From a virus (lineage: Duplodnaviria; Caudoviricetes): a stretch of 64,000 nt of DNA. Position 1 is the stretch's first letter. Each line of letters starts with the position of its first letter. The notes under the pieces were generated by a model that was given only the letters and a program-made list of their open reading frames with translations, was not told where the DNA came from and did no database searches. Below are positions 10,459 through 51,590 of the stretch, piece by piece. The stretch is taken from positions 31,655-95,654 of the IMG/VR virus record IMGVR_UViG_3300014204_000139. The stretch is one strand, 5' to 3'. The position numbers and the translations under genes are program-made.

Positions 10459-12435
10459 ATGAATGTAAGTCCTGGTGTTTATAGTAAAATAATTGATATA
10501 TCTGATTATGTTCAATCTGTACCTAGTACAATTGGTTGTTTAATGGCTCTAACTAAAAAAGGAAAAGATAATCAATTTAGCTTTGTAGGGAGTCGTTCTG
10601 AGTTAATTTCAGGATGGGGTGAACCAAACATCAATGATTACGGAAAAAATTATGGACAGGGATTATATGAAGCATATAACTTTTTAGGTGAATCTGGTGC
10701 TCTTTATTTTATGAGATGTTTACCAGATGATGCTACATTCGCTTGTATTAGAATAGATGCTAGTTTAGCTCCAGCTGATTCCACTGCAGCAATTTCAATT
10801 AGTTATGTTGATAGTTTAAACACAATTGATGAAATCAAAACGGGTTTAGCAACTGCAGGAACTACTTTTCCATTATGTATGTTATATCCAATAGGAAGAG
10901 GTGAATATTACAATGCAATTTCTATTAGATTAACAGAATACTCTAATCCAATGGTTAATGGGGTTTATGTATTAGATATTTATGAAAAACAATCAGATGG
11001 TGATGATGTAATTATAGAATCATTTGAGGTTTCTTTTGATCCAAAAGCAGTTGATAGATCTGGAGATTCAATTTTTATTGCTTATATTTTAGAAACATAC
11101 TCTTCAATTCTTAGATGTGAAATGGTTTTAGCTAGTGGAGATTACACTAGTGGTTATAATCTTGTTAGTAGAATTTATGATAAAGATATTGGTACCGTTT
11201 CTATTGTTGAAACCGCAGCTTCAGCAGAAATAATTGATAACAAACAATTATTCACAGATTGGGAAAATAGTGGTGAAACAGGTAATGCAACATACATGGT
11301 AATTGCAAAAGATGCAAAAGGTAATTCCATTTATGGCTGGTTAGGTCAGGCTACAGGAACAGATAATGATAGAATCAATGTTTGGGACGGAAGAAATTTA
11401 TCTACTGCATCAAGAGGATGGATAGGAGATATTACATTATTTGATAATTCAAGTATAATTACTTATGAAATTAAAAAATCTAATACTTCAATAACTGATG
11501 CATTTATTTCTTCAACACCAGTTCCATTTAAGAAAGGAACAGATGGTACACTTCTAGATTCAGTTGGAAGTTTGGATACTACGGTTGCAACCCAAGTTTT
11601 AGCAGAAGCATATGCAGGAACATTAATAAATCCAATTACTGGATTAGTTGAAGATTTAATTACCGATACAGAAAATGTTTATTTTAGTATGGTTTTTGAT
11701 GCTGGTTATCCTGCAAGTGTTAAATCACAAATTTCAACTCTAGTACAAACCAGAAGAGATTGTGTTGCTATTATTGATAATGGTGATAATGCAACATATA
11801 ACTTAGCAATTTCTGCTAGAAATAATACTAATACATTTAATAACTACTATACTGCTATTTATGAATGTTATAATAAAGTGTATGATATCTTTACAGGGCA
11901 GGATATTTGGGTTAGTCCAATTTACCATATGTCTTATATTCTTCCTAGAAATGATAGTGTTAGTGAATTATGGAATGCTGCTGCAGGATTTAATAGAGCT
12001 TCAATAGATACAATTAAAGAATTAAGATATAATGCTAAGGTTGGTCAGAGAGATGGTTTTTATTTAACACAACTTAATGATATTGTTAAGTTTAGTTCTG
12101 GTTATGTTGTTTGGTCCCAGTTAACAAGTCAAGCTAAAGCTTCTGCAATGCAAGATTTAAATATAGTTCGATTAGTTTTATATTGTAAGAGAAGTCTTGA
12201 GAATTTTGCTAAATTTTATATATTCGAAATGAATGACCAAATTACATGGAATAAATTTAATAATGAAATAGTAGGATTTCTTGAAGATGTTAAAAGAAGA
12301 AGAGGTTTATACTCATATAGTACAGACACATCTGCAACTGCATATGAAAGAAAAACAAAAACCTTCCATTCAAATATTATTTTAGAACCTACACGTACTA
12401 CAGAGCAAATTAAATTAAACTTTTATGTTAAATAA
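10459..12435 (+). CDS. contractile tail sheath protein
   Basis: SPGVYS N-terminus; W.AAAGFNR, WSQLT, LNIVRL, FEMND..TW, P.RT.EQI C-terminal sheath motifs. Confidence 0.93.
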   Translation: MNVSPGVYSKIIDISDYVQSVPSTIGCLMALTKKGKDNQFSFVGSRSELISGWGEPNINDYGKNYGQGLYEAYNFLGESGALYFMRCLPDDATFACIRIDASLAPADSTAAISISYVDSLNTIDEIKTGLATAGTTFPLCMLYPIGRGEYYNAISIRLTEYSNPMVNGVYVLDIYEKQSDGDDVIIESFEVSFDPKAVDRSGDSIFIAYILETYSSILRCEMVLASGDYTSGYNLVSRIYDKDIGTVSIVETAASAEIIDNKQLFTDWENSGETGNATYMVIAKDAKGNSIYGWLGQATGTDNDRINVWDGRNLSTASRGWIGDITLFDNSSIITYEIKKSNTSITDAFISSTPVPFKKGTDGTLLDSVGSLDTTVATQVLAEAYAGTLINPITGLVEDLITDTENVYFSMVFDAGYPASVKSQISTLVQTRRDCVAIIDNGDNATYNLAISARNNTNTFNNYYTAIYECYNKVYDIFTGQDIWVSPIYHMSYILPRNDSVSELWNAAAGFNRASIDTIKELRYNAKVGQRDGFYLTQLNDIVKFSSGYVVWSQLTSQAKASAMQDLNIVRLVLYCKRSLENFAKFYIFEMNDQITWNKFNNEIVGFLEDVKRRRGLYSYSTDTSATAYERKTKTFHSNIILEPTRTTEQIKLNFYVK

Positions 12436-12456
12436 ATAATTTATACAAAAAAATAA

Positions 12457-12500
12457 TAAAAATGGAGTTAAGCTATAACTAAAGCTTAACTCCATTTTTA
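12457..12500. terminator. bidirectional terminator hairpin
   Basis: 18-bp inverted repeat between convergent operons. Confidence 0.8.
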
Positions 12501-12509
12501 CCGTAATAT

Positions 12510-12749
12510 TTATTTTCCGGGAGGTATCTCAACACCTATCCCATTATATATTTTATCTATTGCATCAATTTTAAAATAAGCTTCTTTATATTCTTTTGCA
12601 TCATTTTTTGCTGAAGTTAGTTTTTCAATTAGAAGATTAACTTGGCCTTCTGTTAATTCACATAATGCAGTACCAATTAGTAATATAATCTTTCCTTTAG
12701 GAGAAATCTTTACCCTAACATTTCTAATAGCGTCTGATTCAGTTCCCAT
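12510..12749 (-). CDS. hypothetical protein
   Basis: 79-aa ORF at operon end. Confidence 0.6.
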   Translation of the reverse strand: MGTESDAIRNVRVKISPKGKIILLIGTALCELTEGQVNLLIEKLTSAKNDAKEYKEAYFKIDAIDKIYNGIGVEIPPGK

Positions 12750-12755
12750 AAAAGT

Positions 12756-13169
12756 TTATCCATCTCTCCAAGCTTCTTCTATAAATGCTAATTCGTTCTC
12801 TTTTACAATAATTCCATAACTTGCAAGTTCTGAAATAATTTCTTTCTTAAAATCTCCCAGTGTTTGATTATCTTGCATATTTACAGGTGATGCAGCAATC
12901 ATAATATAATCAGAACCATAACAACCAAAAGAAAAATTAAGAATCGTACTATAAAAATTATCTGAAATATTATATCTTAGATTTTTTTTGTCTTCTATAA
13001 ATTTTTCATAATTAATAGATACATCATAATATTTACTTGTTTTGTAGTTTTCAAAACATCTCTTTAAAAATAATTCATTTTTAAAAATATTACTATTTTC
13101 TATTTCAACTCCCCATCCAATAAAAGATGTTGTACTTGAGTTTGTAACAAAATCTAACTTTCTTCTCAT
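12756..13169 (-). CDS. DFVTNSS-motif protein 1
   Basis: Starts MRRKLDFVTNSSTTSFI. Confidence 0.85.
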   Translation of the reverse strand: MRRKLDFVTNSSTTSFIGWGVEIENSNIFKNELFLKRCFENYKTSKYYDVSINYEKFIEDKKNLRYNISDNFYSTILNFSFGCYGSDYIMIAASPVNMQDNQTLGDFKKEIISELASYGIIVKENELAFIEEAWRDG

Positions 13170-13190
13170 AAAAATGTATAAAATCTCCTC

Positions 13191-13706
13191 TTAGTGCGTA
13201 TCAACCACTTCAATTTTTACTTTATTGATGTCAAACTTTTTTAAATTTGTTTCTCTATAAATTAAGTATAGCATCCAATCTGGAACATCTTGAAAAAAAT
13301 CATTATACATACTTGTATCATGAGTAACAGTAAAGAAATTTTCAAACTTTATATCAAAATTCATTTCTCCTAATAACGTTCTTTTTATTTGGTCATCTGT
13401 AGCTAATAAACTAGCTTTTTCATCAAAATGTTTATATATCAAATCATAAAATAATTCGTCTCTCTTATCCGCTTCTCCTTTCTCAATTTTTTCTTCTAAT
13501 TCTTTTTTGCTTTTTATGTGTTTTTTAGTAGCATCCTTATATTTTTCAACTTTTTTATCTAAACTTTCAGAATTAATTTCTATATAATAATCTATATATT
13601 TATTCCACAATTTAATAAATTCATTTAAAGTTTTTGCTTCACAATTTACATATAAAATAAATGAGGCACTTGATGAATTAGTTATAAAATCTGTTTTTAC
13701 TTTCAT
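13191..13706 (-). CDS. DFVTNSS-motif protein 2 (start re-assigned to 13706)
   Basis: Starts MKVKTDFITNSSSASFI. Confidence 0.85.
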   Translation of the reverse strand: MKVKTDFITNSSSASFILYVNCEAKTLNEFIKLWNKYIDYYIEINSESLDKKVEKYKDATKKHIKSKKELEEKIEKGEADKRDELFYDLIYKHFDEKASLLATDDQIKRTLLGEMNFDIKFENFFTVTHDTSMYNDFFQDVPDWMLYLIYRETNLKKFDINKVKIEVVDTH

Positions 13707-13707
13707 A

Positions 13708-14241
13708 TTAATGTTCACTATTTTCTAAATTTGGAAGTTGATTAAAAGTGCCACCGTGTTCCATGTCGCTAAAAAACCCCCCACCTTCATCTGAATAACA
13801 AAAAGTATATATAAAACCTTTTTTATTTTCTAAAATAAAATCTTTTAAATCATCATCTGAGACTCTTAAAGTTGTATAATTATCAGAAAAATGTTTTATT
13901 ATTTTCATTACAATATAATCAACTTGTGCAACTGGAATTATTAGACTAGGATAAAAATTTGCACTTTTTTCTTTTATTTCTTCAATAATAGAATTAACAA
14001 AATCAGGATCAAATCTATCTAATAAAATTGATTCAACTAAATCCATAAAATTAACATCAGCAAAAGTTTTACTAAGATCTATTTCTATTGGAATTTGTTC
14101 CATTGAATCTCTAAAAACCTGTTTTGCTTTTTCTAAAGCCATATAAGGACTTACATCATCTATAGACTCAATCTTTTTTGGAAATAAAACTATGAAGCTT
14201 GTTGAACTTGAATTAGTTACGAAATCATACTTTATTTTCAT
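13708..14241 (-). CDS. DFVTNSS-motif protein 3
   Basis: Starts MKIKYDFVTNSSSTSFI. Confidence 0.85.
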   Translation of the reverse strand: MKIKYDFVTNSSSTSFIVLFPKKIESIDDVSPYMALEKAKQVFRDSMEQIPIEIDLSKTFADVNFMDLVESILLDRFDPDFVNSIIEEIKEKSANFYPSLIIPVAQVDYIVMKIIKHFSDNYTTLRVSDDDLKDFILENKKGFIYTFCYSDEGGGFFSDMEHGGTFNQLPNLENSEH

Positions 14242-14588
14242 TAATAACCGCCATCACCAATTATAACTTCAAAATCTTTTCCAAAATTTAATTTATTAAT
14301 TCCATTATTTACCATAAAAATCTCAAGAGGATCATCTGATTCTGAAGAAGCCTCAATTAATAAAATTTCTCCGTTACTATTTATAACATTCTTCATTTTT
14401 TCAAAATCTGTGTAATCTTTAAAATTTTGTTTTAATTGATCAATATCTCTAATTTTATCACTAACATATCTATCTAGATCAATCTCAATCTCAATTTTTA
14501 TTTTTCCTAATTTTTCATTTCTATTTGTATGACCTATAATAAAACAAGCGCTGCTTGAATTGGTTACAAAATCTGTTTTTCTTTTCAA
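14241..14588 (-). CDS. DFVTNSS-motif protein 4 (TTG start at 14588)
   Basis: GGAG-6nt-TTG gives MKRKTDFVTNSSSACFI. Confidence 0.8.
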   Translation of the reverse strand: MKRKTDFVTNSSSACFIIGHTNRNEKLGKIKIEIEIDLDRYVSDKIRDIDQLKQNFKDYTDFEKMKNVINSNGEILLIEASSESDDPLEIFMVNNGINKLNFGKDFEVIIGDGGY

Positions 14589-14860
14589 TGATCGCTCCAC
14601 TTAATCTTTTTTTCATCAACGTGAATTAATTCTAAAAATTCACGCATATTAAAATTATCTAAAAATGTAGATAATTTTAATGCTTCTCCCAAATCTTCAA
14701 TATACCATTTGTCTTCTTCTGCATATTGACCCATTCCCATTCTTGTAGCATAATATAAGTGATTTTCAATTTTTTTAATTTGATTTGGACTTAAATATTC
14801 TTTTTGAATTATAAATGAGCAACTACTTGAATTTGTTACAAAATCATTCTTGAATTTCAT
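14585..14860 (-). CDS. DFVTNSS-motif protein 5
   Basis: Starts MKFKNDFVTNSSSCSFI. Confidence 0.85.
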   Translation of the reverse strand: MKFKNDFVTNSSSCSFIIQKEYLSPNQIKKIENHLYYATRMGMGQYAEEDKWYIEDLGEALKLSTFLDNFNMREFLELIHVDEKKIKWSDH

Positions 14861-15485
14861 TGAACTTCTTATCCTTATTACAAACTATTACGATATTTTT
14901 TTCAGATTTGCACTGTTTATCAAATTGACCATTACCATTAGATAACTTACAAAGATCTAAACACCATAATTCATATGGACTTAACTTATCTACAATAAAA
15001 GATGGATATTTTTCTGATTTATTTCCTTCACAACAGGGCATCATAATTAAATAATCTGCCCCTGATTTTTTATAAATATCAATAATTGCAATAGCTAGTT
15101 CATCACAAGGATGAACTGATACAATTATAGAAGGATTATTTTCGTTTATTGTTTTAATTAAAATATCTTTTTCTTTTATTATATCTAACTTTATTCTACT
15201 AAAACCTCTGATTTTAGAAAATCCTTGTCTATCTCTATCTTTATTATCAATTGCAACTACATTTTTGACTTTAAATAAATGTGCTATTAAAGAAGAAGTA
15301 ACACAATTACCTGAACACAAATCAAAAATATTATATTTATTAGGATTTGTAACTAAAATCTTTTTAATCCTTTTAATTATAGACATAGATTCAGTAATTT
15401 CTTTTTCAGGTTCAAGAAATGGATATACTGAATTTAAAACATCTCCTGCACATTTTAGTTCTAGAAAATGATTAATAGCACTCAT
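14844..15485 (-). CDS. class I SAM-dependent methyltransferase (Methyltransf_32/Trm13-like)
   Basis: FDLCSGN motif I, VAID, SVHPCDELA, MPCC. Confidence 0.75.
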   Translation of the reverse strand: MSAINHFLELKCAGDVLNSVYPFLEPEKEITESMSIIKRIKKILVTNPNKYNIFDLCSGNCVTSSLIAHLFKVKNVVAIDNKDRDRQGFSKIRGFSRIKLDIIKEKDILIKTINENNPSIIVSVHPCDELAIAIIDIYKKSGADYLIMMPCCEGNKSEKYPSFIVDKLSPYELWCLDLCKLSNGNGQFDKQCKSEKNIVIVCNKDKKFNEIQE

Positions 15486-15502
15486 TTAATCTTCTTTCTT
15501 TA

Positions 15503-16522
15503 TTACAATTCATATGGACAAGACATTGGATTATTGTTTAGTTTATTTCTAAACATTTGAAAAGATGAACCATCATCCCAAATTTTTTGAATTGGTGTTT
15601 CTTTTGTAATTTTCAAACCATATTTGTATTTATCTCCAAAAGAGCATGGCATAAACATCATATCTGGAGAAATATAACAACTCATTCTTGAACCTTCACA
15701 TGTATCAACACAAGTTTTTTCATTTTCGGTCAAATCTCTTACTTGACTAACCTTGTTAATCATACATGAATCACAACCAATTTTAAATTTTGACTTTGGA
15801 TCAAGAAGGTGATTTGCAAACTCTTTTATTTGATCATTATTTAAACATAGATATTTTTTATCTGCACCATTTCCTTGTGGTTTAAATAAAAGAAATACTA
15901 CAGCATTTAATTTATCAATAGGAAATTTTTCATTCCATATATCTTCACCTTTTAAGATTTTAATTGAGTTAAAAAAAGTTTCATTTGAAACTACAAAATG
16001 AATATTAGTTTTAATTTCTTCTTTAATGAATTTATTTAATGCATTATAAGTAAAATCTTTATCATAATTTGAAACTGCAACAGCGCCACATAGTTTACTA
16101 ATTTCAACTTCTTCATCTGTTAAACCATTACCAGATGTAGTATAATTTGGAATTACATTATTCTTTCTGCAATATTCAAGAATTTCTTTAAAATTTTCAT
16201 GTTTATTTGGGTCACCCTTTCCACCTAAAGCGACCTGATTAATATGAGATTTACATTGATCGATAATTGATTTAAAATCTTCTAATTTCATATTTGGTTC
16301 ATTGACATCGCCCTGATAGCAAATTTTACAATTATTTAAGCAATGGCCCATAATACCAATATCAATCATACTAGGAGAATTCAGAACAAATGGATCTGGA
16401 TTTCCATGAATACCAGACAGAACTTCAAAACCATTAAAACCATTAAACAAAATAATATACTTCTCAGTCTCAATCTTCTTAGTAAAAATCATTATAATAC
16501 CTTTCAGAAATATTTTATTCAT
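15503..16522 (-). CDS. radical SAM enzyme with C-terminal twitch/SPASM-like Cys domain
   Basis: CLNNCKIC (CxxxCxxC), ALGGKGDP, TTSG; GCDSC, CEGSRMSCYISPD...PCSF...CP. Confidence 0.9.
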   Translation of the reverse strand: MNKIFLKGIIMIFTKKIETEKYIILFNGFNGFEVLSGIHGNPDPFVLNSPSMIDIGIMGHCLNNCKICYQGDVNEPNMKLEDFKSIIDQCKSHINQVALGGKGDPNKHENFKEILEYCRKNNVIPNYTTSGNGLTDEEVEISKLCGAVAVSNYDKDFTYNALNKFIKEEIKTNIHFVVSNETFFNSIKILKGEDIWNEKFPIDKLNAVVFLLFKPQGNGADKKYLCLNNDQIKEFANHLLDPKSKFKIGCDSCMINKVSQVRDLTENEKTCVDTCEGSRMSCYISPDMMFMPCSFGDKYKYGLKITKETPIQKIWDDGSSFQMFRNKLNNNPMSCPYEL

Positions 16523-17003
16523 TCCCAGTAACTAAAACTACTAATTTATCATTATCAATTTTAATTCTTTCATATCTCATTTTACATTCAGATAAATTTC
16601 CATTATGATCTGAAAATCCACAGGTACTTATAGATTTAAAACCCTTTCTCTCTTTATATTTCAAAAGTTCAATTAGTTTTTCATCTTTCTCAATTTCATC
16701 TTTATAATATTCTAAATATATCGATGATTTATCTCTTTCATCTTTAATCAATCTTTTATAAGTAATTATATTTTTTTCTATTTCTTTAATTTTATCGTTA
16801 ATATCTATTACTTTAACATAATCTTTTTCATTTATAATTTTAATAACCTCATATACATTTACATTATAAATTTCATCAATAAATTCAAAAGATCTCCAGT
16901 TATCTTTCATAACTGAATAAAGATCATTTAATTCTCTTCCTCTAAAAACAAAAATATATGAAGTTGAACTTGAGTTAGTTACAAAATCTCTTTTTATTAA
17001 CAT
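16515..17003 (-). CDS. DFVTNSS-motif protein 6
   Basis: Starts MLIKRDFVTNSSSTSYI. Confidence 0.85.
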   Translation of the reverse strand: MLIKRDFVTNSSSTSYIFVFRGRELNDLYSVMKDNWRSFEFIDEIYNVNVYEVIKIINEKDYVKVIDINDKIKEIEKNIITYKRLIKDERDKSSIYLEYYKDEIEKDEKLIELLKYKERKGFKSISTCGFSDHNGNLSECKMRYERIKIDNDKLVVLVTGNE

Positions 17004-17364
17004 TAATCATTCTAGCCTTTATAAGCGTGTAAGATGAAGATTCTTTTTTACCAAAAATTTTTTCTAACCAGTTTAAAATTCCAGTTGTATTACATGTATC
17101 ACAACTAAGATTCATTTTAGAATTAGGCTTAGTAAAACAATCAGGACATAAAAAATTTGGTGGTTTAATTATAACTACAAATACTTCTTTACATATTGTA
17201 CATCTAAAAATATATTTTGATTGATTAATTTTTCTTAAAAGTTTTAAATAATATCTTGTATAAGATTCACTAGAAAAATTTGGAAATGGACCATGATTAT
17301 TAATACATTTTAAACCTTCCGAACTAATGAATTTTTTAGTATTACTATTATATATTGTTATCAT
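16975..17364 (-). CDS. zinc-finger hypothetical protein
   Basis: CTIC, CPDC, CDTCNTTG. Confidence 0.6.
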   Translation of the reverse strand: MITIYNSNTKKFISSEGLKCINNHGPFPNFSSESYTRYYLKLLRKINQSKYIFRCTICKEVFVVIIKPPNFLCPDCFTKPNSKMNLSCDTCNTTGILNWLEKIFGKKESSSYTLIKARMINVNKKRFCN

Positions 17365-17493
17365 TAATTAATTCTTTATTCATTATCTTTAATTTAGTAG
17401 AACATTCTCTACTAAATTGAAAAATATAATTAGTATCTAAAGTATATAAGATATCATCAAAAATATTTCTAAAGATTAATTTTTTTTCTTCAA

Positions 17494-18567
17494 TTAATCC
17501 AATTGACATTTTGTCTCCTTAGATAAAAGAAATCTTTTTGTAATTTTTTGACAAAGTTTATCAATTGCAACTTTATTTGCTGTATGTGGAAGAACAGACT
17601 TCTCATATAGTTCATTAAATTTTAAATCAAATGATTCTAGAAGATTTGAAATTTCTTCATATTTATAAGTGCCATTTTTAATTTCAAGTAAGAATTTTGC
17701 ATCTGGTCTTGGAAATGTTATTTTTCCTGTTGTTAATAATTCTTCGCCTTCAGTAATTAATCTTACTAAATGTGAACCATGTTTTGTATCAAATCCATAT
17801 TTTTCTTCTAGTTTTGCTCTTTCTGGATTTCTATTCTTTTTCCAATTTTCATACTGATTAAAATATCTTTCTGCCATTGCATAAGAATTTTCTTTTTGAA
17901 GAATTTCTATAAATTGATCAGAAATAGGTAAAATTGCTTGAGTTGCTTCTTTGTCTAAATTTGGAAATTGTTTGCAAAGAGCTTTAAAATCATAAGTCTC
18001 TTGCATTTGTTCTAGTTGTTCTTTTAGAGGATGAAACTCTTTAACATTCTCTAACTTCATTGCAACTAATACATTTAAAGCACCAATTTGATCTTTTGTT
18101 AAATCAGATTTAGATTCAGATAAACCATAATCAGATCTTTTTGGTTTTTTAGTTGGAGGATTTAGTAACCAAGATCTATGTAGTTTAATTCTATTAAATT
18201 GAGAATGAGCATAACCTGAAAATGTAAATTTAGACTTTTTAGAAACAAATAAGTCTCTATTTTTTGAAATTTGTAACCAGTCTACTGAGTTCTGTAGCCA
18301 TTTATCTTTTGGAACAAATAAAAGTTCAATAATATTTGGGTTATTTTCCATTGCTAACTGCATAAATTTTCTAATTTCAAAATATGTTATATCATTTTTC
18401 TTATCTTCAAATTGCTCTACTCTATTTAAGAACCCATAAAAATATGTTTCATCTGCAATAAAAACACCTCGTTCATCAATATCTGATTGTGGTGTATTTG
18501 TGCCATATAGATGTGATCCAGCTAAACATCTAAAAATTAATTTAAAGGAGTTTGGAAGTTGAATCAA
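17494..18567 (-). CDS. Pol-beta superfamily nucleotidyltransferase (RlaP/NrdC.11-like)
   Basis: GSHLYGTNTPQSDIDERG (GS + DxD), NNPNIIELL, GFDTKHGSHLVRL. Confidence 0.88.
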   Translation of the reverse strand: MIQLPNSFKLIFRCLAGSHLYGTNTPQSDIDERGVFIADETYFYGFLNRVEQFEDKKNDITYFEIRKFMQLAMENNPNIIELLFVPKDKWLQNSVDWLQISKNRDLFVSKKSKFTFSGYAHSQFNRIKLHRSWLLNPPTKKPKRSDYGLSESKSDLTKDQIGALNVLVAMKLENVKEFHPLKEQLEQMQETYDFKALCKQFPNLDKEATQAILPISDQFIEILQKENSYAMAERYFNQYENWKKNRNPERAKLEEKYGFDTKHGSHLVRLITEGEELLTTGKITFPRPDAKFLLEIKNGTYKYEEISNLLESFDLKFNELYEKSVLPHTANKVAIDKLCQKITKRFLLSKETKCQLD

Positions 18568-18596
18568 TTCTTATTACCTTTCTTTTTATTAAAATA

Positions 18597-18634
18597 ATAT
18601 CCGCATTAGACAAACTAATATCTAATGCGGATAT
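18597..18634. terminator. 14-bp hairpin between the 633-aa gene and the nucleotidyltransferase
   Basis: ATATCCGCATTAGA / TCTAATGCGGATAT. Confidence 0.6.
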
Positions 18635-18641
18635 CTTAAAC

Positions 18642-20543
18642 TTAGCTAATCAGATTTATTATTGTATCTTTCTCTAAACTTTCAGGTGAAAGATCAATAT
18701 CACAATCTTCTTTTGAGTCAACCAATATTGCTCCAGATTTCTCTAAAACCTCATTTAATGTTATACTACCAAAATTAAAGTCAAAAAGAAACTGTCTAAT
18801 TTTATTGGTTGATTTTGTTGCTCTTGATGTTATTGAATCCCCAAATGAGGTTTCAACATAATAGAATTTACACTCTTTCTCGTTAGTAACCATCAACCCA
18901 ATAATTTTCTGACGAGTTGAAATTTTAGCACTGTCGGACGAGATAACGTTATTTGGACTAATCATATAATTTCTGGAAAGATTTTCTCTTACATCTCTTC
19001 CAACAATTATTTTGAATGGAACCTCAACCTTTTCGTTAAAATTATAATAGTTGACAAACATAATTGAACATATGGAACTATTTTTATTTACATGAAATAA
19101 TTCTGTAGCACCATTTGGAGGAGTTGCAGAGGTCATATCTCCAGAAAATAAAACAGTTAAATTCTGATTCCTGTAACGTCCATCCCATCCTATTTTGTCT
19201 CCAAGATGATTAATCAAAGAGAGATCTAGATCAATTCTATTTTCTCCAACATCATTCCAATGAATACCAAAAATCATATTATTTGGAACACTAATACAGG
19301 TTCCAGATGGAAAATTTCCAACAAATTGTTTTTCTGTTGCAGGTAATGAATATGTAATATTTTTTGGAATATAAATATTCTTTCCTGCAACCTTTTGTCG
19401 GAGATTTTCACTTATAGATTTTAGAATAATGTTCAATGCATCTTGATGTTTTTTAGAACTTAATTCATTAAAATCTGTAACAAAATTTTTTCCATTTCTA
19501 ATTCTATACAATATATAACTTGGTTCAGATTCTCTAAACTTTACTGAATATACAAGTCTTATTTTTCTAAAGACATTTACTTTTTTTAATTCTTTTTCAA
19601 GAATTTCTAAATCTAGAGTATCATTTTTAATTTTAGATGTTACACTGTTTAGAAAATCTTCTGGCATCGGTTTATGAAAACGTACTGCAAGTCTTCTGAT
19701 TCTATTAATTATGTTATTCATTTCTTCACTTCTTTTAAATGCTAGAAATAAAGGTTTAAATCTGTAGAAAATCTCGCCAAGATGTTCAATACCAAATTCT
19801 TTATCATATTTTTTAAATAATTTGTAAACAATATCTTTGGTGATTGTCATTGATACTTTTATTTCTGAAATTGTATTTGGATCTTTAATCAACAACGTTC
19901 TCCCAATAGATTTAAATATTACAAATCTTAGGAATTCAATAGGATTCTTTGGAATTTTATTTAGACTATCATATAGAACAACTCTAACTTCTTTATTTTT
20001 AATTTGAACCAACTCATCTTCAGAAAAATTAAAAAGTTGTTTAATAAGATTAACCATGCCAATTTTTGTATCATCTTTTAAAGCGATTCCAGACTTTAGA
20101 ACTGCAAAAACTTTTTCTTTTAATTCTTCTATAGTGTATCCCTTAATAACTGTCAAGGGAATTTTATCTAAATTGATTCTTGGAAGTTCTAATTTTTCAC
20201 ATGGAATATAAACTGAATTATTATCATATACACCAAGAGCCTCAAATCCATATGTAGTTATGTAATGCATTATTTGCTCAATTACTAAAACTTCAATATT
20301 TGTTTCTTTTATTTTTCTCCATGATTTATGAAAGGTGTTGTTTATCTTTCTTGAATTAAATCCAATTGTTTCTTCAATCATGGGAATTATTTTAATTAAA
20401 AAATCTGTATCATAGTTATAAATTACTTCTGGTGCATAAATAAATCCACTTTTAATTGTTTCTTTGAGAAGTTTTTTATTTGCTTCTTTTTTTCCATTTT
20501 TTGTAATTGGTAATGCTTTGAATAAACTAATAAATGTCTGCAT
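18642..20543 (-). CDS. large helical protein with C-terminal TerD-like domain (possible Ro/TROVE(Rot)-TerD-type RNA-binding protein)
   Basis: EQIMHYITTYG in the helical region; FGIHW..RIDLDLS..IGWDG..FSGDMTSA..GATE in the C-terminal region. Confidence 0.55.
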   Translation of the reverse strand: MQTFISLFKALPITKNGKKEANKKLLKETIKSGFIYAPEVIYNYDTDFLIKIIPMIEETIGFNSRKINNTFHKSWRKIKETNIEVLVIEQIMHYITTYGFEALGVYDNNSVYIPCEKLELPRINLDKIPLTVIKGYTIEELKEKVFAVLKSGIALKDDTKIGMVNLIKQLFNFSEDELVQIKNKEVRVVLYDSLNKIPKNPIEFLRFVIFKSIGRTLLIKDPNTISEIKVSMTITKDIVYKLFKKYDKEFGIEHLGEIFYRFKPLFLAFKRSEEMNNIINRIRRLAVRFHKPMPEDFLNSVTSKIKNDTLDLEILEKELKKVNVFRKIRLVYSVKFRESEPSYILYRIRNGKNFVTDFNELSSKKHQDALNIILKSISENLRQKVAGKNIYIPKNITYSLPATEKQFVGNFPSGTCISVPNNMIFGIHWNDVGENRIDLDLSLINHLGDKIGWDGRYRNQNLTVLFSGDMTSATPPNGATELFHVNKNSSICSIMFVNYYNFNEKVEVPFKIIVGRDVRENLSRNYMISPNNVISSDSAKISTRQKIIGLMVTNEKECKFYYVETSFGDSITSRATKSTNKIRQFLFDFNFGSITLNEVLEKSGAILVDSKEDCDIDLSPESLEKDTIINLIS

Positions 20544-22308: not shown

Positions 22309-22956
22309 TCAAAATTTTAGTTTTCCTCTTTCTTCTGGCGGAAAATCTAAGTATTTTAATTTAGTAATAATTCTTTCACCAGATCTTGTATATAACTCTT
22401 CTTCTGGTTTTGCAACAATTCCCTCTGCTGGAAGATTTGCAAGATTTGATATAAATCCATTTTTTACAATTTCAAGCATTTCTTTTAAAGTTCCGCTTCC
22501 AATATTTGGAACAATATTAAAATTAAATTTTTTTGCAATCATTTGTTTAGAAATATTATTTAGCCACCATCCATCAATATTAATATCAATTAGAATTATT
22601 GAAACTCCATTTGGAAGATATCTTGATCCATCATTTTCTTGGATCCCTTTTCCATAACCTTCAAAATACATCTCAACTTCTTTATCTTTAAACATTTCTT
22701 CAAATAAATCAATTTTTGAAAAAACTTTTTCACCACAATAATTTATCAATGGAACTGGAATTTGACTTCCTGGATTTCCAAAAGATATACAATTATTATT
22801 CCATTTAATACAAATATTAGTACCATTTATTTTTTCAGTAAAATTCCAAATATTATTTTGTAAATATCTAAATTCAGGTATAGAATAATCACCAACAATT
22901 AATCTTTTTGAGTTATCTCTTTTAAACAATGATTGTATTTTATGATATTCCTTCAT
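22309..22956 (-). CDS. ATP-dependent RNA ligase-family nucleotidyltransferase (short Rnl2-like)
   Basis: Motif I TEKINGTN, FEGYG, AEGIVAKP, ITKLK. Confidence 0.8.
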   Translation of the reverse strand: MKEYHKIQSLFKRDNSKRLIVGDYSIPEFRYLQNNIWNFTEKINGTNICIKWNNNCISFGNPGSQIPVPLINYCGEKVFSKIDLFEEMFKDKEVEMYFEGYGKGIQENDGSRYLPNGVSIILIDINIDGWWLNNISKQMIAKKFNFNIVPNIGSGTLKEMLEIVKNGFISNLANLPAEGIVAKPEEELYTRSGERIITKLKYLDFPPEERGKLKF

Positions 22957-24111: not shown

Positions 24112-24458
24112 TTAATCAATTACCAATACTTCTGGATAGCAAATTGTACCTTCTGGTCCACCATAAGAAATTTTTGTATTCATTTTTCTTCTATAAAAAT
24201 TTTCTAGGTTGTGGGTATCCAAGCCTATTTTTTTGGACTTTTTCCTCTTTTTAATGGAACAACCCTTAAAATTCTAGATGTTGTAAAGTTATTTGCAAAA
24301 TGTGTAGCATCTCTTTTTGTTTTGAAACAAAATACACCCAAACTATCATCTTTACCTTTTATAATAGATCCTTTTTCATATTTTAATATAAATTTAAGAT
24401 CCCTAACTATAATACTTTCTCTATTATGATCTACAACTTTATATTTATATTTAGTCAT
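24112..24458 (-). pseudogene. paralog of 23742..24095 interrupted by a -1 frameshift at an A7 run (24228-24234)
   Basis: Frame 0 ends ..SPKK*; the -1 frame continues IGLDTHNLENFY...PEGTICYPEVLVID*. Confidence 0.75.
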
Positions 24459-25792
24459 ATTTCAAGTTCCTTAACTAGATTAGTTAATTTTTCTTTATCA
24501 TTTAATTCAGGTTCATCTAAAACACATTCCAATAAATACTTCAAAACATCACCAACTTCTTTTCCTGGTTTTAATCCTGTTAATTCCATAATCTCATAAC
24601 CATCTATTTTTAAATCTCGAAATTGATTAACAGGGTCTTTTCTATTAGCCTGATCTCTAAAACATTTTGTTAAGTTATAGATATCTCTTAGTTTATAATA
24701 TTCTCTACTTTTTAAACCACCCATCTTATCACAAATTGCAACTCTAATTAGACTTTGGTATGGAATATTACAATCATTTAATGATTTGAGAGTTCTCCTT
24801 ACACCCTTTGGACCAGTTCTTTCACTGGAGACTCTCATATGCAATAATATTAAATTAGAGATTAAATTAATCTCTTCATAACTAAACCTTAAATTTCCTA
24901 ATTCAAATTTTGCTTCTTCACATCCTGTTTCCTCATGACCCTCAAACCAAATATCTTTTGTTTTTGGGTTAGTTCTTGCAGAGATTGGTTTTCCTATATC
25001 ATGAAGATAGGCAGCTAATTTGATTAATGGATCTTTTGTATGACAATGATCGCCTGCCATCATACAGTGATCAAATACATCTTCTATATGATATGGACCA
25101 CCTGGGTGCAAATATGCTAAATTTAAACTTGGAAAAACATATTTTAATGCATTAATATCATAAAGAGATCTAAAGAATATGGAAGCCTTTTTTACTGACA
25201 TAGCTTTTAATACTTCAAGTCTTATTCTTTCTGGACTAATATAAGACTTAATATAATCAGAATATTTTTTCAAAGATTCAAATGTATCATCTGAAAAGTA
25301 TCCATCAATTTTTGCTAAAAATCTACAAGCTCTTATGATTCTATTTGGATCTTCCCAGATTCTCTTTTCTGGTTCTCCATTAAATCTTATGATTCTCTTT
25401 TGAAGATCTTCTTGACCATTTACATAATCAATAATCTTTTTTGAAGTTGGATCATATAGTAAAGAATTAATTGTAAAATCCCTTCTTTTTACATCCTCTT
25501 CAGCTGATTTAGAAACTTTAATTTGTACATTTTTATCATTTAGTCCATTATAAGAATCTGTTCTGAATGTTGCAACTTCAATACCATCAATAAAAGTAAC
25601 CAGAAAACTTTTACCAAATGTTTTTATTTCTTGATCTTTAAAAATTTCAATTAATTTATCTGGTTCAGCTGAAGTTACTACATCTTTATCTTTACATTTA
25701 ATCCCTAGAATCATATCTCTAACATAACCACCAACAAGATATGATTCATAACCTAAATCTTGAAGTTTTAAAATAATTTCTTCTGCAGTCAT
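24455..25792 (-). CDS. cca: CCA-adding tRNA nucleotidyltransferase / poly(A) polymerase family with HD domain
   Basis: VGGYVRD..DKD, EVATFR, RRDFTIN, EDPNRIIRA.RF, LHDIGK, GHE. Confidence 0.88.
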   Translation of the reverse strand: MTAEEIILKLQDLGYESYLVGGYVRDMILGIKCKDKDVVTSAEPDKLIEIFKDQEIKTFGKSFLVTFIDGIEVATFRTDSYNGLNDKNVQIKVSKSAEEDVKRRDFTINSLLYDPTSKKIIDYVNGQEDLQKRIIRFNGEPEKRIWEDPNRIIRACRFLAKIDGYFSDDTFESLKKYSDYIKSYISPERIRLEVLKAMSVKKASIFFRSLYDINALKYVFPSLNLAYLHPGGPYHIEDVFDHCMMAGDHCHTKDPLIKLAAYLHDIGKPISARTNPKTKDIWFEGHEETGCEEAKFELGNLRFSYEEINLISNLILLHMRVSSERTGPKGVRRTLKSLNDCNIPYQSLIRVAICDKMGGLKSREYYKLRDIYNLTKCFRDQANRKDPVNQFRDLKIDGYEIMELTGLKPGKEVGDVLKYLLECVLDEPELNDKEKLTNLVKELEI

Positions 25793-50650: not shown

Positions 50651-50826
50651 TCATTAAAAATATTTTCTAGCCAAGTTAATTTTCCTCTCCCTCTACATTT
50701 ATCACAGTCAGTCATTAACCTTGCTTCTTTTTTAGTATTACAGTTGAAATATACAAAAATACCTTCCATACATCCTGAACCTTTACATTTATTACATTTT
50801 ATAAAACCATCATTTTCTTTTTTCAT
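50647..50826 (-). CDS. 59-aa DnaJ-type zinc-finger protein
   Basis: Manual translation: CNKCKGSG...CDKCRGRGKLTWLENIF. Confidence 0.65.
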   Translation of the reverse strand: MKKENDGFIKCNKCKGSGCMEGIFVYFNCNTKKEARLMTDCDKCRGRGKLTWLENIFNE

Positions 50827-51590
50827 TGTAGTTTATGAAAATCATAAATTCTTGAATATAAATCTATCCATTCTATGTAAGAAGTTGGATATTCTTTATC
50901 AAATTTATATAATTGTGGACATGCAGAAATACCACCATCTGGAAATACCCATATAGCTTTTAGAGTTATACATCTTTTATTACAAGATTTACAACCAATT
51001 CCTCGATTCTCTTGAACTCCTGTAAATCTAAAATTCAATAATTCAGGACCAAAATAATGATATGATTCCTCCATAAATTTATAGTAATCAGAAAGATCTT
51101 CTTCAAAAAAATCTGAAAATACTTTAACTTTAATTTTTTTACTTAAAAAGTATTTTATAAAATCTGTTGTAACATAAGGATTTCTTTTTGAATATACACA
51201 TTGAACATCACCATTAAATTTTACAGATATATTATTTCTGTCTTCATAAGTTCCAATATGAAGACAATCAATAAATTCTCTCCCTTTAAGATTATATCCA
51301 TTGCTACATAATGTAGTTCTACAATTAAATTTTTTTGATAATTCTAAAATTTTTAAATAATCAGGATGAAGAGTTGGTTCTCCTCCGCTTAAATATACCT
51401 GAAGTGGTACTTTATAATTAAAAAAGTCTGAATAATATACAATTGAATCAAATGCTTTACTATAATCTAAATACTGTATCGGAGATTTTTCTTGAAAATC
51501 ATTTAAGCAAAAATTACAATGTCTATTACATTCATTTGTAAGTAACAAACGAAGTTTTATTTCATGTGAATGAATTTGTTTATTAATCAT
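50823..51590 (-). CDS. radical SAM protein (MoaA/QueE-like)
   Basis: LTNECNRHCNFC, SGGEPTLHP, CSNG, C-terminal CKSC...C...CPQ. Confidence 0.85.
   Translation of the reverse strand: MINKQIHSHEIKLRLLLTNECNRHCNFCLNDFQEKSPIQYLDYSKAFDSIVYYSDFFNYKVPLQVYLSGGEPTLHPDYLKILELSKKFNCRTTLCSNGYNLKGREFIDCLHIGTYEDRNNISVKFNGDVQCVYSKRNPYVTTDFIKYFLSKKIKVKVFSDFFEEDLSDYYKFMEESYHYFGPELLNFRFTGVQENRGIGCKSCNKRCITLKAIWVFPDGGISACPQLYKFDKEYPTSYIEWIDLYSRIYDFHKLQ

Follow-up and report, generated by a model that had tools for sequence, protein, structure and literature searches.

A run of six small genes in an uncultured virus (IMG/VR record IMGVR_UViG_3300014204_000139) encodes proteins that are unrelated to one another except for a common N-terminal peptide of 13–17 residues, here called the tag, and shares a transcription unit with the gene of a radical S-adenosylmethionine (SAM) enzyme. 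The stretch that we analysed, hereafter the window, is the final 64 kb of this 95,654-bp viral contig (GC content, 24–31%). The tag is N-terminal, selected at the peptide level and carried by unrelated protein bodies, and it is co-inherited and co-transcribed with two lineages of radical SAM enzymes. The module, a radical SAM enzyme with tagged proteins as putative clients of an unusual type, is real, undescribed and widespread, the pairing being repeated in thousands of sequences from uncultured phages; it probably represents an uncharacterised protein-modification system. It is highly likely that the enzyme and the tag form a functional couple, and we assign a probability of about 0.5 to the more specific reading, namely, that a radical SAM maturase of the twitch/SPASM type acts on the exposed tail common to diverse folded proteins.

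A portable N-terminal tag on unrelated protein bodies

The six open reading frames (ORFs), all on the minus strand, begin with M-x-x-K-x-D-F-[VI]-T-N-S-S in exactly the same register, and M1, K4, D6, F7, T9, N10, S11, S12 and I17 are invariant among them. The first-pass annotation of this DNA, made from the letters alone, had located these ORFs and listed K4, D6, F7, T9, N10, S11 and S12 as invariant, all of which was confirmed by an ORF check and a six-frame scan. In that scan, the motif D-[FYW..]-[VI]-T-N-S-S has six occurrences in the window and no further ones in the rest of the contig, each of them five residues past a start codon; the number expected by chance, given the window's own six-frame composition, is 0.0006. 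The codons for S12 and S13 alternate between TCN and AGY, and those for K4, T9 and N10 differ synonymously, so that selection acts on the peptide and not on the DNA or RNA, as the annotation had proposed. It had also moved two start codons, to ATG 13706 and TTG 14588, and both re-assignments hold: in the related loci, 176 of the 186 motif ORFs have a start codon in the same register, ATG 13706 follows the stop codon of the gene ahead of it by 1 nt, and TTG 14588 overlaps the stop codon of the gene ahead.

A profile covering residues 1–34, searched against 1.84 billion proteins (E ≤ 0.001), matched 8,161 representative clusters (50% identity), and nearly all of the top 150 matches cover residues 1–32 of a protein of ~110–140 aa. 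The T-N-S-S-S segment, that is, five consecutive small polar residues, is almost absolutely invariant. The Atlas neighbours of the module proteins are 93–100% viral. The strict motif is rare in species-representative prokaryote genomes (108 stretches matched), and the five loci from this set that were confirmed are all low-GC contigs of metagenome-assembled genomes with the same tandem arrays and enzymes. A literature search found no publication on the motif in a protein context.

For a comparison of the bodies, the first 20 residues were cut from 156 distinct tagged proteins encoded in related loci. The bodies form 21 BLAST clusters, and the window's six bodies belong to six different clusters of 5 to 56 members, so that each represents a conserved family in its own right. 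There are no BLAST matches among the six, profile-profile comparison detected no relation among the body clusters, and every pair of the window's six stays below 10% hhalign probability, in agreement with the earlier impression that the bodies cannot be aligned. Searches of the six clients against Pfam, NCBIfam, PADLOC and the PDB sequence library returned sub-threshold noise only, and sequence-library, profile and fold searches gave no ordinary known domain common to all of them. With the bodies in six separate clusters and without profile similarity, the idea of a portable element, conserved at the peptide level on unrelated folded proteins, is supported.

The tagged relatives have a median length of 128 aa (n = 156; 91–177 aa for the clients in the window) and are acidic, with a median net charge of −11 (range among the six in the window, −1 to −14). 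A further common motif late in the bodies, [FY]-[GS]-D-[EN]-x-G or strand-A-S-acidic, was considered and dropped, its Gibbs score being 10.5 bits versus 10.2 ± 0.16 bits for shuffled sequences. A few families have an M-x-[DH]-x-x-T-[LF] element in common. The family of the 177-aa client (alignment A2) conserves Y-x-D-E-x-G and E-H-G-G-T-F blocks and has an invariant C-terminal His as its final residue; two further clients in the window also terminate in His (..VDTH and ..WSDH).

AlphaFold2 models were obtained for the 177-aa client, with 22 orthologs (predicted local distance difference test score, pLDDT, 88.2; predicted template modelling score, pTM, 0.79), and for the 137-aa client, with 49 relatives (pLDDT 89.7; pTM 0.81). 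In both models, residues 1–12 are non-regular and of low confidence (mean pLDDT of residues 1–10, 44 and 51), and residue 13 is the first of strand 1. Specifically, residues 1–10 of the 177-aa model have a pLDDT under 50 and strand 1 spans residues 13–20; in the 137-aa model, residues 1–12 are coil and strand 1 spans residues 13–24. A low-confidence tail on a confident body is what would be expected of a segment that takes up its fold on a partner. The conserved segment thus appears to be bipartite, with M-K-x-K-x-D-F-V-T-N-S-S as a free tail and S-x-S-F-I-V, predicted to form strand 1 of the body that follows, as its anchor. Both models are alpha/beta, with an unlike order of helices and strands. 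Foldseek searches with the two models against PDB and BFVD gave no match at E ≤ 0.001, and the best VIA-align Z scores, 4.4 and 4.3 (the latter for the 137-aa client), correspond to partial matches of a generic alpha/beta kind. A palm/GGDEF-like enzyme was also considered, given a weak Atlas similarity to the reverse-transcriptase palm (TM score 0.53–0.54), and was dropped as this similarity never reappeared above noise.

The radical SAM enzyme and its linkage to the tag

The enzyme of the window is encoded at 15503–16522 on the minus strand (339 aa from ATG 16522; the orthologs suggest a start at ATG 16492, giving 329 aa) and belongs to what we denote lineage 1. It matches phrog_7293 (E = 4.6e-26) and, below the respective cut-offs, the Pfam families Radical_SAM (PF04055; 23.9 bits, cut-off 29.5) and SPASM (18.4 bits, cut-off 21.5). 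The first-pass annotation had recognised here a CxxxCxxC radical SAM protein with an auxiliary Cys domain, embedded among the tag genes, and an alignment of 28 sequences agrees: C51, C55 and C58 of the CxxxCxxC triad (numbering from ATG 16492) are invariant, along with four C-terminal cysteines (C243, C265, C283 and C325). These four are the only invariant cysteines in the C-terminal part, and the seven-Cys SPASM motif is absent; four are enough for one auxiliary cluster, which is a better fit to a twitch-like than to a full SPASM domain. The alignment thus is consistent with a twitch-like enzyme with one auxiliary cluster. The sole sequence relative in PDB, detected as a profile match (E = 2e-4 over residues 50–289), is SkfB (6efn), a twitch-domain peptide crosslinker. 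The weak NCBIfam matches are all to maturases of the SPASM group, namely, the tungsten-cofactor oxidoreductase maturase, NirJ2, PqqE and the mycofactocin maturase, and the Atlas neighbours are viral Radical_SAM/SPASM clusters, with PF04055 in 53–76% of the members.

Many of the longer enzyme relatives (P0175–P0191, 665–869 aa) are interrupted by inteins or LAGLIDADG endonucleases (PF14890, PF14528), and one carries GIY-YIG and NUMOD3 domains; inteins and homing endonucleases target conserved, important genes. Among these longer relatives, no enzyme-tag fusion was found, and one fusion to an unrelated domain was seen. Lineage 2 is a CxxxCxxC protein of ~350 aa encoded directly after a tag gene, which passes the PF04055 cut-off with 35.7–52.4 bits and has nothing but the generic core in common with lineage 1 (58% hhalign probability over 121 columns). 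A complex prediction for the window enzyme and the 177-aa client with SAM and two 4Fe-4S clusters scored 0.00, with controls absent, and is neutral on binding. Elsewhere in the window, a second, unrelated radical SAM protein is encoded (255 aa; 50823–51590, minus strand; PF04055, 40.8 bits; Fer4_12), with no tag genes nearby.

All six motif ORFs of the contig share one terminator-bracketed unit with the enzyme, and co-occurrence of the motif with this radical SAM subfamily, proposed in the annotation as a check, was borne out in both directions. In the tag-to-enzyme direction, we examined 60 viral loci that were seeded solely by the pattern DF[VI]TNSS[ST]. Lineage 1 is encoded within 10 kb in 33 of these and lineage 2 in 9 more, and a whole-record search of nine exceptions with full flanks located one of the two lineages elsewhere on the contig for 6 more, so that a radical SAM enzyme of lineage 1 or 2 is present in a total of 48 of the 60 motif-seeded contigs; motif proteins are mostly found with the enzyme rather than without it. 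The other 12 have truncated flanks or are fragments, and the three that could be checked are 5–34% complete. Among the whole records searched, two contigs hold both lineages. In the enzyme-to-tag direction, 58 of the 78 loci seeded by the enzyme alignment have a co-oriented ORF with the strict motif, and 65 have a tag ORF if variants that keep TNSSS are included (D6 replaced by S or G, F7 by H). A tag gene is found in the flank of 94 of the 111 distinct enzyme genes, at a median gap of 23 nt, with 93 of the 94 on the same strand and 83 downstream; one enzyme gene accompanies one to six tag genes.

The base rate is low, given that any relative of the enzyme is present in only 168 of the 50,697 cultured phage records. 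These are 168 T4-like phages of Klebsiella, Enterobacter and Cronobacter, which encode a radical SAM protein with 28% identity over 93–98% of the window enzyme (for example, KP15_135 of Klebsiella phage KP15, 400 aa, NC_014036.1 90116–91318), annotated as hypothetical in most of the 168 records. There is no TNSSS-type tag ORF within 6 kb of the KP15 enzyme gene, and the 137-aa client has no match in cultured phages, so that the cultured T4-like phages are not counted as carrying the module. Its restriction to uncultured phages that are probably anaerobic (landfill, groundwater, sediment) may explain why the module went unnoticed.

The transcription unit and its neighbours

The minus-strand gene string that encompasses the module is bracketed by two strong terminator-like hairpins, one upstream (18635–18596) and one at the end of the unit (12502–12455; a 20-pair stem with a T run), both on the minus strand, which defines the order RlaP, zinc ribbon, tagged protein 6, enzyme, methyltransferase, tagged proteins 5 to 1 and a 79-aa ORF. 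The unit is headed by the gene of an RlaP-type nucleotidyltransferase of the pol-beta superfamily (17494–18567; Pfam PF10127, E = 6.4e-24), followed by that of an accessory Cys-rich, zinc-ribbon-like protein of 129 aa (16975–17364; weak zinc-ribbon matches). Tagged protein 6 (16515–17003; 162 aa, MLIKRDFVTNSSSTSYI...; body cluster 5, with 10 members in other phages) has its stop 23 nt ahead of the probable enzyme start. Beyond the enzyme and the methyltransferase come tagged protein 5 (14585–14860; 91 aa, MKFKNDFVTNSSSCSFI...; body cluster 9), tagged protein 4 (14241–14588; 115 aa from TTG 14588, (M)KRKTDFVTNSSSACFI...; body cluster 4, with orthologs that start MK.K in register), tagged protein 3 (13708–14241; 177 aa, MKIKYDFVTNSSSTSFI...; a match to phrog_7397, of unknown function), tagged protein 2 (13191–13706; 171 aa from ATG 13706, MKVKTDFITNSSSASFI...; body cluster 3) and tagged protein 1 (12756–13169; 137 aa, MRRKLDFVTNSSTTSFI...), which belongs to the largest body family. 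All these genes are on the minus strand.

The SAM methyltransferase that the annotation had noted among the tag genes is there (14844–15485, minus strand; 213 aa; Pfam Methyltransf_32, E = 1.8e-10), but a role for it in the system is not supported: none of the 154 other loci has a relative. The copy of the phage in a second metagenome has it unchanged. The methyltransferase is a passenger of this locus, or at most an addition peculiar to the lineage. Relatives of the zinc-ribbon protein are encoded in 7 other loci and those of the 79-aa ORF in 1. RlaP is a recurrent, not universal, neighbour of the enzyme, being encoded just upstream on the same strand in about 15–20 of the 95 distinct lineage-1 loci, some of them without a tag gene. 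Besides RlaP, RNA-repair-type genes near the module comprise those of an RNA ligase and an HD-domain CCA-adding enzyme (22309–22956 and 24455–25792, both on the minus strand). No protease, prohead-protease-type, transporter or exporter families are represented among the operon proteins.

A family of ~221 aa without a Pfam match (L036:10727–11425 and relatives) is encoded within 3 kb and on the same strand for 46 of the 95 lineage-1 genes and is absent from the window; it may be another partner, or the association may reflect synteny alone. As candidate partners, this family and the other recurrent neighbours (CreA-like, WYL_2 and Rad50/SbcC-like) were set aside, since they look like lineage synteny and are missing from the window.

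Judging from the tail sheath gene at 10459–12435, the phage is myovirus-like. Identical DNA was found in a landfill metagenome, the probable source of the contig, and in a groundwater metagenome from a different study (contigs matching parts of the operon, 12400–18700), so that the phage is present in two habitats of the anoxic type. Among the public sequencing runs listed as containing this DNA, none is an RNA data set. Short contig-to-contig joints that link the tag regions of different paralogs were dismissed as assembly cross-links at a repeat.

A possible role of the tail and likeness to known systems

In the reading that we favour, the enzyme, with one radical SAM and one auxiliary cluster, would act post-translationally on the tail of small, mostly acidic alpha/beta proteins. 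The tail (residues 1–12) would be held to the body by residues 13–20 (S-x-S-F-[IV]-[IV]...), the predicted first beta strand of that body, and would enter the enzyme barrel in an extended conformation, which is how the leader and core peptides of ribosomally synthesised and post-translationally modified peptides (RiPPs) enter radical SAM barrels. The T9-N10-S11-S12-S13 segment would hold the modified residue, K2, K4, D6 and F7 would add recognition, and a single enzyme would serve up to six or more clients encoded next to it. Candidate chemistries include oxidation of Ser to an aldehyde, epimerisation and a carbon-carbon crosslink from Phe7 to Thr9 or Asn10. We favour an enzyme-substrate relationship because enzymes of this group modify peptides and proteins, because one enzyme goes with many clients, because the tail is exposed and has the right length for a radical SAM barrel, and because five consecutive small polar residues are nearly invariant.

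Several points weigh against this reading. Physical contact, the status of the clients as substrates, the modification site and the chemistry are matters of inference. In 13 of the 78 enzyme loci, the 8 kb around the enzyme gene lack a tag gene, and an RlaP nucleotidyltransferase is encoded instead in some of them. The tags next to lineage 1 and those next to lineage 2 are indistinguishable at positions 1–13; this lack of tag-enzyme covariation means that there is no signal of a specific interface, and a third party may be the true partner of the tag. Only ~45 residues precede the CxxxCxxC motif, and no operon protein matches the RiPP recognition element (RRE) or PqqD, so that any leader-type recognition must differ from that in most RiPP maturases. 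One protein (P0026, 213 aa; L156:1438–2079) is a natural fusion of two tag-plus-body units in which the second motif copy is internal and lacks the M-K-x-K start, so that a free N-terminus is not always required. Finally, the Atlas model of the 137-aa client resembles three other viral clusters (TM score 0.64–0.73), which leaves room for a single fast-evolving domain.

If the tail were a docking peptide by which exchangeable subunits, for specificity or regulation, attach to the enzyme or to a third partner common to them, and the enzyme actually worked on something else (for example, host protein, nucleic acid or small molecule), the co-occurrence and adjacency data would also be explained, and so would the low confidence of the tail when modelled on its own and the identity of the tag next to two very different enzyme lineages; the RNA-repair neighbourhood with its recurrent upstream RlaP fits such an arrangement, too. 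We nevertheless consider it improbable, given that the near-invariance of T-N-S-S-S across 8,161 clusters is more typical of a reaction site and that we know of no radical SAM enzyme with swappable subunits attached via an N-terminal peptide. Rather unlikely, too, is a single fast-evolving alpha/beta domain in which the motif at the start of strand 1 is a functional site for ligand or metal binding or for catalysis, the enzyme working in the same pathway, for instance as the source of the ligand or by turning a motif residue into a cofactor, as the anaerobic sulfatase-maturating enzyme (anSME) does in sulfatases. The position of residues 13–20 as the first body strand in both models, the internal motif of P0026 that opens a second domain, the Atlas likeness of the 137-aa client and the M-x-[DH]-x-x-T-[LF] element of a few families all point that way. 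Against such common ancestry stand the hhalign values for the window's six bodies, a second-motif score no better than that of shuffled sequences and the different order of helices and strands in the two models; moreover, the most conserved residues (1–12) lie outside the confidently folded part, and a start-codon register kept in 176 of 186 ORFs would be unusual for an internal active site.

Self-processing at Asn10-Ser11 or within the Ser run, which the first-pass annotation had named as an alternative, would yield an N-terminal pyruvoyl group or nucleophile and make the link to the enzyme indirect. Self-cleavage at Asn-Ser and Ser-Ser junctions is classic for pyruvoyl enzymes and related autoprocessing proteins, and the confidently modelled part begins at about residue 11–13. 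However, such a reaction needs no radical SAM enzyme, and the tag is almost never found without one; residues 2–9, which cleavage would remove, show as much conservation as the cleavage site; and self-cleaving sites rely on a conserved surrounding fold that the bodies do not have, all of which makes this route very unlikely. A sorting or turnover signal that acts independently of the enzyme and directs the proteins to the capsid, to export or to a protease appears scarcely plausible: it leaves the lineage-specific, near-obligate adjacency of the radical SAM gene unexplained, the tail has no hydrophobic signal-peptide core, and the operon has no prohead-protease-type gene. What speaks for it is a register-locked N-terminal peptide on polymorphic small acidic proteins of a myovirus-like phage, with the tail sheath gene adjacent; the internal proteins of T4 carry a capsid-targeting sequence.

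With the tail as the substrate of the radical SAM enzyme, the clients might, as a guess, be diverse acidic effectors or decoys that are armed or stabilised by the modification. A broader version, which we put forward tentatively and regard as less likely than not, is a general arming station, a protein-level counterpart of combinatorial RiPP biosynthesis, in which a 12-residue handle brings the same radical-derived modification (crosslink, aldehyde or epimer) to fast-diversifying acidic effectors of phage-host conflict in thousands of uncultured phages. The known clients of radical SAM maturases are peptides and a few dedicated proteins. If the reading is correct, a short portable tag would turn any folded protein into a client, which would be a new organisation of post-translational chemistry; a very large uncharacterised family of phage genes (8,161 clusters at 50% identity) would gain a function, and the tag-plus-enzyme pair could serve as a protein-engineering tool.

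Among known systems, the RiPP maturases with their precursors (SkfB-SkfA, SuiB-SuiA, CteB-CteA, PqqE-PqqA and MftC-MftA) share with the module a CxxxCxxC motif combined with a C-terminal Cys-rich auxiliary-cluster domain, and one enzyme gene next to one or several genes with a conserved, recognition-like N-terminal segment and a variable remainder. Here, however, the clients are folded proteins of 91–177 aa and not small precursor peptides, the segment comprises 12–17 residues at the extreme N-terminus and runs straight into strand 1 of the body, the operon includes neither an RRE or PqqD nor a protease or exporter gene, and the setting is viral. Of the RiPP-like system that the annotation had postulated, the link between a SPASM/twitch enzyme and a portable tag stands, whereas the folded substrates and the absence of RRE/PqqD and a protease turn the rest into an analogy. 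The anSME/AtsB-sulfatase pairs are alike in that an enzyme of the SPASM group modifies a short Ser/Cys motif near the N-terminus of a whole protein and one enzyme serves many clients; here, the sulfatase-type (C/S)-x-(P/A)-x-R motif is absent from the first 20 residues of all 156 tags, there is no sulfatase Pfam match, and the enzyme has four C-terminal cysteines, not seven or eight. In the prochlorosins, one lanthipeptide synthetase, ProcM, processes many precursors that have one conserved leader and hypervariable remainders; the one-enzyme-many-clients logic is alike, by analogy only, whereas the enzyme class differs and the clients are peptides, not folded proteins. The RVxG[FWY] motif of the clients of glycyl-radical enzyme activases occurs in none of the 156 tagged proteins, and among known defence and anti-defence families, the ten operon proteins have no match to PADLOC models at E up to 1.

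Two conflict systems offer further parallels, as analogies only. In bacterial conflict, FxSxx-COOH peptides go together with a radical SAM/SPASM enzyme (Kaur et al., eLife 2020, PMC7159879), and there, too, the counterpart of the SPASM enzyme is a variable polypeptide with a short conserved motif, in a setting related to conflict; that motif, however, is C-terminal and on peptides (0 of the 156 tagged proteins end in FxSxx), and the vWA-MoxR or STAND partners found there are absent here. In the HXS antiphage system, which comprises HxsA with His-Xaa-Ser repeats, HxsB, HxsC and HxsD, the radical SAM proteins HxsB and HxsC reportedly mature the protein effector HxsA, with N-terminal processing and a small mass change (Nat Commun 2026, PMC13128918). 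The resemblance lies in radical SAM maturation of a protein effector in phage-host conflict, and some contigs here also encode two radical SAM lineages. There are no HxS repeats in the 156 tagged proteins and no matches to Hxs families in NCBIfam or PADLOC, and HXS is a bacterial defence with a periplasmic effector, whereas the present module is a phage one with cytoplasmic-looking acidic proteins. By analogy, the module appears to work most like a RiPP maturase with its precursors or like anSME with its sulfatases, although it lacks the defining features of these two.

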